This document shows, piece by piece, positions 58,501-64,000 of a stretch of DNA of 64,000 nt. Where the stretch lies: assembly GCF_048403405.1 (NCBI RefSeq), contig NZ_CP183129.1. One strand, 5' to 3'. Numbering within the stretch: position 1 is the first letter of the stretch; each line of letters opens with the position of its first letter. A program made the position numbers. Origin of the DNA: Escherichia coli. Its GTDB lineage: Bacteria > Pseudomonadota > Gammaproteobacteria > Enterobacterales > Enterobacteriaceae.

Positions 58501-61500
58501 CGGGTGGTACTGACGGTAACTGGTATCTGCGTTCTGAATTGCCGCCAGAACCACAACCGCAGCCGCAGCCGCAGCCACAACCACAGCCACACCCCACGCC
58601 GGATAAACCTGTACAGAAGGTCTATCGTCCGGAAGCGGGCTCTTATATTGCGAACATAGCGGCAGCCAACACGCTGTTCAACATCAGAATGCACGATCGT
58701 GAGGGGGAAACTTACTATACCGATGTGTTTACTGGTGAGAAGAAAGCAACAAGTATGTGGATGCGTCATATCGGCGGTCATAATCGCTGGAAGGACAGCA
58801 GTTCACAGCTGAATACGCAAAGTAACCGTTATGTTGTGCAACTGGGTGGCAGCATTGCGCAATGGACTGACGGTCAGGACCGTCTGCAACTGGGGATTAT
58901 GGCCGGTTATGGAAATGAGAAGAGTTCCACGACATCCTCGCTTTCGGGATATAAATCTAAAGGTGCGATCAATGGATACAGCACCGGTTTATACGGAACG
59001 TGGCAGCAGAATGACGGTAATGACAACGGGGCTTATGTCGATACCTGGATCCAGTACGGATGGTTTAATAATGCCGTTAATGGTGAAAAACTGGCTGCGG
59101 AGTCCTGGAAATCCCGTGGATTTACCGGTTCAGTGGAAGCGGGTTATACCTTTAAAGCCGGCGAATTTATCGGTAGCCAGGGTAGCCACTATGACTGGTA
59201 TATTCAGCCGCAGTCCCAGATCACGTGGATGAATGTAAGAGCCAGTGAGCATACGGAGAAGAATGGCACGAAAGTTCAGCTCAGCGGAGACGGTAATATC
59301 CAGAGTCGTCTGGGCGTCAGAACTTACCTGAAAGGTAAGAGTGCGTCTGATGATAATAAGGCGCATCAGTTTGAGCCATTTGTGGAAGTTAACTGGATCC
59401 ATAATACACGGAGCTGGGGTGTCAAAATGGATAATACGGCACTCAGTCAGGACGGAGCTACAAATATTGCTGAAGTCAAAACGGGTGTTCAGGGTAAATT
59501 GTCAGATAACCTGAATGTCTGGGGCAATGTTGGTGTTCAGGCTGGCGATAAAGGGTACAGTGATGCCCAGGCAATGCTGGGTATTAAATATATATTCTAA
59601 TCACACAGTGGCAGGAGGGGACCTCCTGCCACCTCAGGGTTGTCATAATGAGTTCTGTAATGAAATTTTCTGTTGTTAATGCAGTAGTGCTGCTGTTGCT
59701 GATTGTACTTACTGGTGTTTTTTATATGAAAAAGTCAAAAGAAATTGCAGTTGTTAATATCGATGCTATTTATAATCAGTCTACCGCCGGAGACATGGCC
59801 AGAAAGCATCTGAATGAGGTTAAGAGTATTCTTGAAAAAGGATATGAGGATGCGCAAAAAGCATTCGCAGATAACGCGAATAAAGAGGCGCTGCTTCTTG
59901 ATGCCAGACAAAAACTGGAACGACAATATGTTATTGAGGAAAATAGCGCAAAAAAGGTGTTATCCCGTGCGATAGATAATGCCATAGGCACATGGAGAAA
60001 AGACAATCCTAAAAATATTGCCGTATTGTCTTCAGGTGTTGTGCTTGCGCATAACGAGTCAGCTGATATCACCAAAGAAGTCATGACTCTGGTTGAAAAA
60101 GAAAATCTGGTTTTTAATAAATTACCCAAAGTGGAAGTGCACAATAAGAATGAAGAGAAACCAGAACAAAGTAAGTAATCACTAGATTCTGACGATTTCC
60201 AGAAGGGAGATTCAGCAGGCCAGCATCTGTAATCATTCAGATTTGCTGGCTTGCTGCTAAATATGGTTGCTAAGAAAAATAGCAGACCAGTAATTTATTC
60301 AGATTACTGAATATAATAATTTTTCAGGAACGGTTATGCTGAAGGTAGTATGTTTAATCGACACAATTATTTGCTGTGTCTAATATGAGGTGACATTTTT
60401 ATGATCACTGACCAGCAAGACTGACCCGTATTGATTAGCCTGATTATTGGCAACTTATTGGGGTAGTCATTTTGACATCGAATGGGGGAGGTTTCCAGTT
60501 AAGTTCACGAATGCATGATGATTTGCGTTCACATATCGAAGTACTGGTTGACTATACTAAGGATTTTAAGATAACTCACTGATTGTAAGTGGGTTATTGC
60601 GAGGGGGATGATAAATGGTGTCCCCTGCAGACATCTACTTGACGAGGCAGGGGATTGATTGGAATGGTGTTTTTTAGATGTGAGAAATATTTTACCCGCT
60701 ATTTTACCCATTGGCGCGGCTTAAGAGCTTATTTTTGAATTCACAATGGTCACGATATAACCATCTTGCTCGCCCGTGGATAACTTTGGCTTTAGGCAGG
60801 TCGCCGGACTTAATCCGGTCGTAGATGAAGGTTTTACCGAAGCCAGTATCAGCCATGATGAATTTCAAATCAACCAGTGAATCAGGTTGTAGTTCGTGTT
60901 GCATGAGTGCTATCTCCGAATAGGGAATCGAACCTGCAAATCAGGAAATAAAAAACCGCCATCAGGCGGCTTGGTGTTCTTTCAGTTCTTCAATTCGAAT
61001 GTTGGTTACGTCTTATTCGATACGCACTCCTGGTATTTCGCCTTTTGATATTGCTAAGTCATAAATTTGCGCGGCACTATATCCATCCCGCATCCATGAA
61101 TCTAAGGCGCGAACAGCCTCGCTACGCTTTTTATCTTCTCTCTCATTTTTGATATCAACGAGGACATCAACGCAATTAAGGCAAATGTGGATTTTGTCCT
61201 TACATTCGATCATGGCGGCTTTACCATGATTTCCGCCACACAGTGAGCATAAATCTTCAGGGTCTGTCTGGTATTTCTGTAACGTTAGATGGTTGAATGT
61301 TGAACAGGCCATAATCATCTCCATAAAACAAAACTCGCCGTAGCGAGTTCAGATAAAAGAAATCCCCGCGAGTGCGAGGATTGTTATTCATTGCTGATAT
61401 TCACCTTTATCGCGAACACCTTTACCGGTTTATCACCGAAGTGCGGATGTGTGATTGTCTTGATTTCATATCCACCATACGGAACATCAATTCTGCGACT

Positions 61501-64000
61501 GGAATCGTCGCGCTTCGGATATCCCTTTGTGATAATCAGGCGGTCATATTCCCGGAACATAATTCGCTTATTCCAGTAGTCATTACACAGGCGATACTCT
61601 TCCGTTTTCTCCCCGCGAATCATGGCATCGAAGTATTCACCTTTGACGGCAAGTTGCAGGTTTGCCACGGTTAACCTCCTGCGGCGGTTCCGGTAGCCGC
61701 ATCCAGTGTGACGGCTCACATACCCCCTCAACACCATTCATGTAAAAGAATTGAAATAACCCTTTACCTTTGTGAAACCCTACCATCTGCTCTTTAGTGT
61801 CTGAGCAATAAACCAAAACATCTTCTTCGTTTGGCATTCGATCACTACAGCTTATCCAACCATCAGGAGCTACCGGAGAGTTGACACCGGGAATATTTTC
61901 CGGAATATTTTGTTGTGCGTTTTGTGGTTGTTCGGATTTACCCTGAAGCATGGCGGCGCGGCAGGCGTTCCAGCCAGCTGTTCGCCCAAGCGCGTAAACT
62001 TCAGATGGCTCAAGATAATCAATGTCATGCCCATCCTCATCGTCGTTCTCAGGTAATGCAGCAGGTACTACCGGTACTGGCGGAGCGGCGTAGACTTCAA
62101 TAATCCCATTATCAATAGGCCATTCCCCATCCTTGATGTAGTCACTTGTGCCGTCAACTTGCTGTTCTGCAATGTGGAATGCACCAACTGGCTCTGCCTC
62201 AAGCGAGGCCAGTGCAATTCGTGCCAGTTCCATTTGTTCGCCACGGGTAAGCCCGTTTTCAAGTGGGGATTTAATGAACAATTCGATACGTTCTTTAGTG
62301 ATAGTGCTCATATCACTCTCCTTTGATGCGAATGCCAGGGGCGCGTGGCACATTAACTTCCACGATGCGCACAGTTGGTTTGTACATCTCAATCGCTGTC
62401 AGCCAGTCAGCTCCTGTCATGCGCTTTTCCGCATCGCCATTAGTCCACTGAACCGGTACACCAATAGCCTTCATCGCGATTTCTATTTCCCCGGCAATGG
62501 CGCTTTTTCCGCAACCAGTAAAACCAGATACAACGACAAGAACTTCGCCTTTGGCTGGTTTTATTTCCCGTGCTTCCAGTTCTGCTATGCGCTTCTCTGC
62601 GGCTTCCAGCTCAACACGCAGCTTCCCTACCGTTAGCGCAATTTCCTCGTTCTCCTGGTCGCGGCGTTTTATGTATTGCTGGTTTCTTTCCCGTTCATCC
62701 AGAAGCGCCAGCACTAATTTAGGGTTGAAAGCTGCGATAAATTCTGCGTTGTTCTCTGCATTTTTCTGGTCGTCAAAGCCAGGCCATTTGATAATGTCTC
62801 CGCAACGTTCATCCCCCGGCGTATGCACCGCATATGTACCAGTGTCCGGCGAGATGAATGCACGCCATTCGCCCTGTGTTGCCTGTTGCGCTATCTTACG
62901 TAAGGTAGCTAATTGTTCGCTGGTAAAAGTCATCATGGTTGCATCTCCCGTTCTTCTGCCCACTTCCGAAGCCCTTCAATCTCACCATTACGAGCTATCA
63001 GCTCGCGACACAGTCTTTCGTTTTCATCCAGCAGCGCCAGCACGGTAGCTGGATTGGCTGCGGCGATGAATTCAGCATTGGCCTGCTGTTCCATTTGGAA
63101 ATCTTCATAGAAACGGCTTTCTGGATGCGCTCCTTCAATTCTGCAAATAGGAATATATCCAGCAACCTCGCGATGAATTAGTGCATCATCACCATCAAAT
63201 CGTCCCTCTCCATATTCGAGCGACCACACACCACACGTTGCTTTCTCTGCCTTTTCACGCAGTGCCTGATAGTCAATCTTGCTCACTGGTTGCCTCCTTT
63301 GCGAAGCTGGGCAGCAAAGTCAACTAACCACTCAGTCATTTCAACCTTCCCTACCAGATCTGAACCAGGGTGCATACAGCAATCACTCTGCGCCGCTTTG
63401 AAATCCTTATACTCATATTCTTGGGCCACCAGATTTTTTGCAGCTTCTATAGCAGCATCCACGCCCTGCGCCCGCACTTCAGCCAGGAAAGCATCGGTGG
63501 CTGGGGTTTCAGTAACATCATCTTCCCATTCGCTAAACTCCTCACGACAAAAGTCATTAAATTCCTTCTCAGATTGCTTAAGTGAGGTATTTTCAGCAGC
63601 CATCTTCGCGCATTTAGCCTCAAGGTTATCAATCGTGATTCCAGCAGAACGACACTCCCGCAACGCCGTTTCTAGTTTTGATTCAAGTTCACCGAACTTA
63701 CGGACAAGATATTCAGCGTTTGTTTCGTTAACCTTTAAATCTCGTGGGATGCATTTACCTTTCAGAAATCCATCCATCTCAATTAGTGACATTTGTTTCA
63801 TTTCTTCCCACTCCGCAACATCGCGTTCAGATATTTGTTTTGATTCACTGATGGAAACTCTCTCGCTTAAGTAATTCCTCTCTCGATGGCATTGGCTTTA
63901 CGCGTTGGCGAATAATCATTTCTGCCGGAAGAATGCCGGGATTGTATGCAAGTCCTCTCATGGTAAATTCCTCTTTGTTAATTTATTTGTATGCCTGCTC

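Follow-up and report, generated by a model that had tools for sequence, protein, structure and literature searches.

Background

KplE1 (CPS-53) of Escherichia coli K-12 and phage HK620 share a recombination module in which attP lies between the excisionase and the integrase genes (PMC2951348), an order that is also followed at the locus described here and that differs from the order xis, int, attP of lambda and P22. KplE1 is bounded by a 16-nucleotide (nt) duplicated core, CTGCAGGGGACACCAT (PMC2951348). Its excisionase TorI, which binds five sites in attL but not in attR, is equivalent to HkaC of HK620 and gp18 of Sf6 (PMC3509656). We analysed a 64,000-nt stretch of E. coli contig NZ_CP183129.1 (assembly GCF_048403405.1; hereafter the window, to which all positions refer) that carries torI and a compact gene array at 60704-63961. 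Very probably, a lambdoid temperate prophage with the HK620/Sf6/CUS-3/KplE1 type of integration has inserted in the 3' end of argW, and this segment is its attR-proximal end.

Elements of this kind are already known and have been characterised thoroughly: the segment combines the argW-specific KplE1/HK620/Sf6 recombination module with a typical mosaic accessory region, and it matters little beyond correct annotation. The latter region resembles the accessory genes of the lambda and P22 PL operons (ea22, eaA-eaI), which are small, packed, non-essential and mosaic, encode Ead/Ea22 and DUF551 (EaA-like) domains among others, and have the recombination-function genes on one side and xis/att on the other. 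For this locus we establish the gene identities, the att core, the exact boundary between host and phage, and the mosaic joints.

The Attachment Site and the Host/Phage Boundary

The KplE1 core CTGCAGGGGACACCAT is present on the minus strand at 60615-60630, starting 73 bases downstream of the torI stop codon, and this is its sole exact match in the window. It consists of the 3' end of argW plus a T and aligns with K-12 pawZ and with the attP cores of HK620 and Sf6. A second copy of the core, which would point to tandem elements or to an att-bounded island, was not found in the window even when two mismatches were allowed. Alignments with K-12, HK620, Sf6 and phiv205-1 are near-invariant from just upstream of torI to the core and diverge directly after it.

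The boundary was fixed by comparison with the empty site, for which the K-12 yfdC-argW sequence was joined to the reverse complement of window positions 60179-60614 and searched in complete E. coli genomes. An uninterrupted match to this reconstructed attB, at 99.4-99.5% identity, was found in 186 prophage-free genomes, including EcN_Sk (a derivative of E. coli Nissle) and 042, so that the unoccupied argW site is documented in other strains. In the Nissle derivative the gene order is yfdC, argW, 437 nt, an OmpH-family gene, upaE, a LuxR-type regulator, ipuA, ipuB, dsdC, dsdX and dsdA. The window is collinear with this genome over 40215-60630 at 98-99% identity (98.9% for 58551-60630), and the match ends at 60630, exactly at the last base of the core. 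Since argW is joined directly to the left flank in the 186 genomes and the match to Nissle stops at the core, the prophage begins at the core and positions 60179-60608 are host DNA. In all likelihood, then, the strain has the argW-dsdC locus with the ipuAB-upaE island, and the prophage is inserted there in the tRNA-Arg gene argW.

The attP sequences of HK620 and Sf6 remain identical to the attB of this strain for 6 nt (TTATCA) beyond the core, up to 60609. Because TTATCA follows the core both in attB of this type and in the attP of these phages, the identity block is 22 nt long and the crossover cannot be placed more finely. In K-12 the B' flank is formed directly by dsdC; here it is formed by the upaE island, whereby the identity between attP and attB is lengthened to 22 nt. 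The prophage/host boundary is thus fixed to within 22 bp (60609-60630), with the flank on the side of the upaE island being host DNA. The first-pass annotation had suspected an att site in the 525-bp gap 60179-60703 and had proposed a search for an argW-derived core; that search located the 16-nt core in this very gap, but only 95 bp of the gap (60609-60703) are phage or att DNA.

An ORF (open reading frame) at 60529-60711 on the minus strand begins at the torI stop codon and crosses the att core. It resembles the HkaB/Sf6 gp17 family (phrog_18701) over its first 34 residues only and is, therefore, a phage/host hybrid in the prophage, split by integration.

The torI-attR Recombination Module

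TorI, encoded by the last gene before the att site, is 100% identical in sequence not only to the K-12 protein, which has been characterised by experiment, but also to HkaC of HK620 and gp18 of Sf6. The gene differs from that of K-12 at 5 nucleotides, all of them synonymous. By this identity, its product is predicted to be a recombination directionality factor (excisionase) and also an inhibitor of TorR. At its right end, K-12 CPS-53 has a counterpart of the complete torI-attR module (60615-60954), with 97.4% identity. Between the attR-IHF2 primer site, i.e., that of the attR substrate used for excision in vitro (primers from PMC3509656), and the core, 110 of 113 nt are the same as in K-12, the three substitutions being located at 60643-60646. 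Given the identity to substrates that are active in vitro, the module may still be competent for excision by TorI and IntS.

The P arm of attR contains two direct repeats, GGGTAAAATA, at 60688-60697 and 60700-60709 on the minus strand, of which the second includes the torI stop codon. Judged by the TAAA motif of the P' sites (PMC2951348), these repeats look like arm-type sites for IntS. On the other side of torI, 19 nt upstream of its start codon, there is an exact 16-nt copy of the T-arm of argW, TTGCAGGTTCGATTCC, which is invariant in K-12, HK620, Sf6 and phiv205-1. Counted with the att core, the final 31 nt of argW are present here as a split copy that is interrupted by torI. The copy falls within the stretch annotated in the HK620 record as the cII-dependent promoter pI; the first TTGC tetrad of the HK620 site reads TTTC here and TTAC in K-12. 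ARAGORN predicted no tRNA at or near this 16-mer and no tRNA-Arg in the window, and an Rfam search of 59500-64000 with E-values up to 1 gave only two chance-level matches.

This locus thus shares with KplE1 the TorI protein, the 16-nt core, the argW site on the dsdC side, the T-arm copy and the ribosome-binding region upstream of torI. With Sf6 (genes 17-23) the likeness extends further, since 60609-61390, comprising the attP core, torI, the terminators and gene 19, is 97.7% identical in one piece.

The Gene Array

Eight closely packed ORFs, each preceded by a Shine-Dalgarno-like sequence, occupy 60704-63961 on the minus strand (Table 1). They would be transcribed in the order DUF2737, coiled-coil, Ead1, Ead2, DUF551, ASCH-like, Cys-rich and torI. 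All of them are at the place and on the strand where they had been called from the sequence initially, and all have a PHROG match with an E-value of 5e-51 or better, except the 38-amino-acid (aa) DUF2737 ORF (E 1.7e-24). The several ATGA start/stop overlaps reported at that stage come down to a single one, between Ead1 and Ead2. The other short overlap, between the coiled-coil gene and Ead1, is a GTGA; Ead2 and DUF551 are separated by a 1-nt spacer (TGAtATG), and a 43-nt gap lies between the 38-aa ORF and the coiled-coil gene downstream of it. PADLOC detected no defence system in the array, save a match of TorI to mad1 (an excisionase-like helix-turn-helix protein, E 8e-14) and a weak match to HEC-07, both of which we took as generic fold similarity.

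Table 1. Coordinates of the genes, attachment-site elements and terminator-like hairpins at the prophage end.
Feature	Position	Strand	Remarks
Host intergenic DNA, upaE-island side (B' side of attR)	60179-60608	.	Contiguous with yfdC-argW in prophage-free genomes
attR crossover region	60609-60630	-	Core plus 6 nt (TTATCA) of attP/attB identity
P arm of attR	60631-60703	-	Phage side, adjoins torI
torI	60704-60904	-	66 aa; phrog_66, excisionase; 100% identical to K-12 TorI
argW T-arm copy, TTGCAGGTTCGATTCC	60924-60939	-	16 nt, exact; 19 nt upstream of torI start codon
Terminator-like hairpin with T run	60953-60972	-	Between Cys-rich gene and torI; left edge of conserved module
Cys-rich protein	61013-61312	-	99 aa from Shine-Dalgarno-bearing start codon; phrog_3680, E 3e-68
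Two tandem terminator-like hairpins	61331-61350, 61361-61382	-	Between ASCH-like and Cys-rich genes
ASCH-like protein	61384-61668	-	94 aa; GTG start after AGGAGG; phrog_625, E 5e-51
DUF551 protein	61637-62311	-	224 aa; PF04448, 65.6 bits
Ead/Ea22-like protein 2 (Ead2)	62313-62936	-	207 aa; PF13935, 109.3 bits
Ead/Ea22-like protein 1 (Ead1)	62933-63286	-	117 aa; GTG start; PF13935, 77.8 bits
Coiled-coil protein, HkaH family	63283-63801	-	172 aa; phrog_614, E 2e-66
DUF2737 ORF	63845-63961	-	38 aa; PF10930, 72.7 bits

Both Ead genes score above the PF13935 gathering cut-off of 27 bits and their products are 38% identical to each other. Ead1 consists of the N-terminal Ead domain only, which is of the HkaG/Sf6 gp21 type, and is 93% identical to the first 90 residues of Sf6 gp21. 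In Ead2 the N-terminal Ead domain is followed by a short coiled coil and then, at the C-terminus, by a module of about 80 aa (62313-62560) with a Walker-A-like GFTGCGKS and, further on, a hydrophobic strand ending in Glu. This module is near-invariant among relatives whose middle parts differ; searches with it gave only weak P-loop matches (E 0.006-0.2) and no relative in the PDB. The Ead2 family comprises more than 8000 relatives, one of which (P0019) is 100% identical. The pair of 117-aa and 207-aa Ead proteins recurs in three contigs (L009, L011 and L012), and contigs with an identical Ead2 carry the same Ead1-Ead2-DUF551 unit.

The coiled-coil protein is 98.8% identical to its counterpart in phiv205-1 and 74% to HkaH of HK620, while its residues 3-42 are 75% identical to YfdS; a Pfam scan of this protein returned only weak coiled-coil matches. 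For the 38-aa ORF the DUF2737 score exceeds the cut-off of 25 bits, with positions 1-36 of the 53 profile positions covered, and 36 aa are 97% identical to HkaI of HK620. This ORF is collinear with its counterparts in HK620, Sf6 and STEFF_1 save for a 1-nt deletion and six substitutions, all packed within about 10 nt at 63858-63868. These changes shift the frame, so that the ORF ends 44 nt early and the ATGA coupling to the next gene is lost. On this comparison, we read the 38-aa ORF as an allele of the 54-aa HkaI-type DUF2737 gene that has lost its C-terminal part through a frameshift. The altered patch coincides with the hairpin of the terminator tL3 annotated in HK620, which is destroyed here.

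The DUF551/ASCH-Like Overlap and Mosaicism

The initial observation that the DUF551 and ASCH-like genes overlap by 32 bp in different frames proved correct (61637-61668). The ASCH-like product aligns with phrog_625 over positions 1-93 and is 98% identical to a phiv205-1 protein and 93% to a RefSeq "ASCH domain-containing protein"; RefSeq gives this label to proteins that are 93-98% identical to it. Its sole Pfam match, to PF04266, reaches 15.6 bits (E 0.027), below the cut-off of 21.2 bits, and a sequence search of the PDB found no match. The gene behaves as a cassette, being present in some relatives and absent in others. The DUF551 domain itself scores well above its cut-off of 22 bits, at residues 178-238 of the long ORF.

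The last 13 codons of the DUF551 gene (EVNRGKPATCRQR) run into the start region of the ASCH-like gene. DUF551 proteins usually end in ...HWMPLPEPPL*, as in HkaE of HK620 and in L012, but in phage N7, as at this locus, the frame runs on to give ...LPEPPQEVNRGKPATCRQR. The overlap and the extended tail arise because the DUF551 gene is joined to a conserved junction, CCGCAGGAGGTTAACCGTGGCAAACCTGCAACTTGCCGTCAAAGGTGA, which holds the ribosome-binding site and the initial codons of the ASCH-like gene. In N7 and Sf6 the body of that gene is missing, but the junction with its Shine-Dalgarno sequence and a stump of 10 codons has been kept, and in Sf6 the same junction ends an unrelated Lar-like gene. 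In the Sf6 record, this region is itself annotated with "boundary sequences". These comparisons point to the 32-bp overlap being a conserved recombination junction. The stretch 61314-61390, which is conserved at 98.7-100% in N7, STEFF_1 and the contigs L009-L011, likewise behaves as a boundary sequence, given its high conservation. The segment illustrates how, in the accessory regions of lambdoid phages, conserved junction sequences give rise to unusual overlaps between genes and to truncated ORFs.

The array is a mosaic in other respects as well. The description of the segment as a CPS-53/KplE1-like prophage end holds for the torI-attR module but not for the gene content, and the alignment from torI through yfdO envisaged in the first-pass annotation would fail. 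CPS-53 shares only 60615-60954 and a yfdS-like stretch (73%) of about 105 nt in the coiled-coil gene, at its 5' end. Upstream of torI, K-12 has ypdJ, yfdT, yfdS, yfdR and yfdQ, and tblastn and blastn searches against K-12 2465500-2480500 for CPS-53 genes (yfdP-yfdT, ypdJ) recovered nothing but torI and the 40 N-terminal residues of YfdS. K-12 similarity starts just downstream of the hairpin at 60953-60972.

Relatives of the other seven proteins are found in HK620, Sf6, N7, phiv205-1, ST104 and Stx1a-converting phages. At the nucleotide level, HK620, Sf6, N7, phiv205-1 and the Stx1a phages show high (92-98%) but patchy similarity, and the patches break off at gene borders. The ASCH-like and coiled-coil proteins are closest to those of phiv205-1 (98-99%). 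The limited coverage by any one genome or phage (see below) is the usual mosaicism of lambdoid accessory regions. HK620 (hkaI-hkaC) has the order DUF2737 (hkaI), coiled-coil (hkaH), Ead/Ea22 (hkaG), DUF551 (hkaE), hkaC and attP, in common with this locus, and the shared patches are 93-97% identical. It differs in having one Ead gene as well as hkaF and hkaD (EaG), in lacking the ASCH-like gene and the zinc-finger gene of the gp19 type (see below), and in its hkaI, which has the full 54 aa and overlaps hkaH, whereas the 38-aa ORF does not reach the next gene. Sf6 differs in having its Lar-like gene 20 where the DUF551 gene is located here and, of the ASCH-like gene, only the stump. The human-gut metagenome contig L012 is 99.8-99.9% identical over 64000-63478 and 63302-61692 and carries the identical DUF2737 allele.

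A ClpX-Type Zinc Finger in the Sf6 gp19 Family

The Cys-rich protein is 96% identical to gp19 of Sf6, whose family (phrog_3680) is listed as being of unknown function in PHROGs and RefSeq. As a single sequence it matches the ClpX zinc finger only weakly (Pfam E 0.014, NCBIfam E 0.002, PDB E 0.05), with 15.8 bits against a cut-off of 27 for PF06689. The family profile is much more informative: in an alignment of 13 members four Cys are invariant (CxxC-x18-CxxC), 12 of the 13 members match PF06689 (best E 6.4e-13), and the profile matches structures of the ClpX zinc-binding domain at E-values of 2e-8 to 7e-8 (1ovx and 2ds5; 1.8e-8 for 1ovx). The AlphaFold model of the Cys-rich protein (predicted local distance difference test score, pLDDT, 74.5) shows a small unit resembling a zinc ribbon, after which comes a helix of 30 residues. 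Foldseek comparison of the zinc-finger model with the PDB gave nothing significant; the ClpX zinc-binding domain (2ds5_A) ranked 9, with a target-normalised template-modelling (TM) score of 0.64, an E-value of 2 and 32% identity, and the ClpX-type assignment, therefore, is based on the sequence profiles. These give good support to a predicted stand-alone C4 zinc finger of the ClpX type with a long helix, as opposed to the ClpX ATPase. The family is small, with only 23 representatives in an exhaustive search, and largely restricted to Escherichia prophages.

It is tempting to speculate that the gp19-like protein acts as a protease decoy that interferes with the choice of substrates or adaptors by ClpXP. 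We consider this quite improbable, the link to ClpXP being pure conjecture from the domain type. Such a decoy could pair with the N-domain of ClpX, or could occupy SspB-type adaptors or a replication protein like lambda O of the phage. If true, P22-like and Stx phages would carry, in the gp19-like gene, an accessory gene that encodes a protease decoy. As it stands, the assignment of a ClpX-type zinc-finger domain to a family that databases list without a function is a modest but testable lead.

The Nature of the Prophage

Several points weigh against reading the segment as the end of a temperate prophage with a normally expressed early-left region. The window stops at 64000 and attL, intS, the repressor and the virion genes lie beyond it, which leaves room for a remnant, and the frameshifted DUF2737 allele hints at some decay. 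The exact combination of genes was encountered in no genome or phage record searched, the best coverage being 67% among E. coli genomes and 46% among phages, so that no single characterised phage can stand in. Furthermore, no sigma-70-like promoter was found in the segment on the coding strand upstream of torI or of the array, and antitermination is assumed from relatives.

The first two of these points would fit a decayed, non-inducible remnant like CPS-53 of K-12, which can still be excised but is no longer a phage, and K-12 indeed keeps the same torI-attR module on a 10-kb remnant (PMC2951348). However, apart from the DUF2737 gene the ORFs are intact, have Shine-Dalgarno sequences and possess counterparts in viable phages at 93-100% identity, and the early-left accessory region is, unlike that of CPS-53, complete as far as the window extends. 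The recurrence of the frameshifted allele in L012 argues for a circulating variant rather than for local decay. A remnant thus seems rather unlikely to us, although it deserves to be kept in mind.

Another question is to which group of phages the prophage belongs, since the integration module and the ea genes are common to P22-like Lederbergviruses and to lambdoid phages of the 933W/Stx type. The phage records with the highest coverage are indeed Stx1a-converting phages (at 95% identity), and the 5' part of the DUF551 gene (61856-62347), encoding the N-terminal part of the protein, is matched by these phages alone (94% DNA identity). Most other matches, however, are to the Lederbergviruses HK620, Sf6, N7, phiv205-1, CUS-3 and Kapi1, and all contigs with an identical Ead2 that show virion genes are P22-like, as judged from the head-binding domain of the tailspike, gp16 and gp20. 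One of these contigs (L009) is a complete P22-like genome with torI, attP and the integrase gene in this order as well as the tailspike, gp16 and gp20 genes. Early modules move freely between both groups and the segment, therefore, does not discriminate between them; we regard a Stx-type phage as unlikely.

That the array would be partly non-coding, with the 32-bp overlap and the 38-aa ORF as artefacts of ORF calling, is scarcely credible, for although long antisense ORFs are present, two of them matching small PHROG families, and the 38-aa ORF is a truncated allele, each minus-strand ORF has its own Shine-Dalgarno sequence and aligns over its whole length with a large PHROG or Pfam family, a PHROG alignment from residue 1 and a well-spaced AGGAGG fix the GTG start of the ASCH-like gene, and N7 and Sf6 have conserved the sequence of the overlap. 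The two antisense ORFs, at 61372-61674 (+) and 62497-63048 (+), lie opposite the ASCH-like and the Ead genes and match phrog_20945 (full length) and phrog_13760, respectively; they are probably miscalled genes that have spread through phage records.

A Probable Course of Transcription and Excision

Transcription termination, in the form of Rho-dependent control, has reportedly been linked to the maintenance of KplE1 and may be relevant to the terminator-like hairpin upstream of torI. Returning to the segment as the attR-proximal end of a temperate prophage, we note that in its relatives the genes that follow beyond the window edge are abc2, ssb, a recombinase gene, kil and cIII, i.e., those of the PL operon, which makes the array the distal end of an early-left operon. 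Upon loss of the repressor, leftward early transcription of the PL type, rendered resistant to termination by a phage antiterminator, would proceed through the accessory genes of the ea type and cross the three terminator-like hairpins to reach torI, the last gene before attR. The three hairpins, together with the missing promoter-like site, make it the simplest reading that torI is reached only by such termination-resistant transcription after induction. Translation of neighbouring genes may be coupled through the two short overlaps (GTGA and ATGA) and through the spacer of 1 nt. This operon logic and the translational coupling are suggested by relatives and by general knowledge of lambdoid phages.

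TorI would then act together with IntS, encoded at the far end of the prophage, and integration host factor (IHF) to recombine attL and attR within the argW-derived core, by which the phage would be excised. The accessory genes that are crossed on the way may be seen as a patchwork built by recombination at short conserved junction sequences, and such assembly would explain both the 32-bp overlap between the DUF551 and ASCH-like genes and the truncated DUF2737 ORF.

Flanking DNA

The host DNA adjoining attR is part of the known argW-dsdC variable island (40215-60178), with dsdA, dsdX, dsdC, ipuB, ipuA, a LuxR-type regulator, UpaE and an OmpH-family gene (59648-60178), and this island is 98-99% identical to that of E. 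coli Nissle. UpaE (51687-59600) is a phase-variable autotransporter of 2637 aa, whose Pro-Gln repeat (58551-58601) differs in length from that of Nissle. Further away, the window contains two tRNA clusters, Lys-Val-Val-Val at 2016-2413 (-) and Ala-Ala at 8186-8376 (+), which fit the valU and alaXW region of E. coli and, with it, a reversed orientation of the window relative to the K-12 map.

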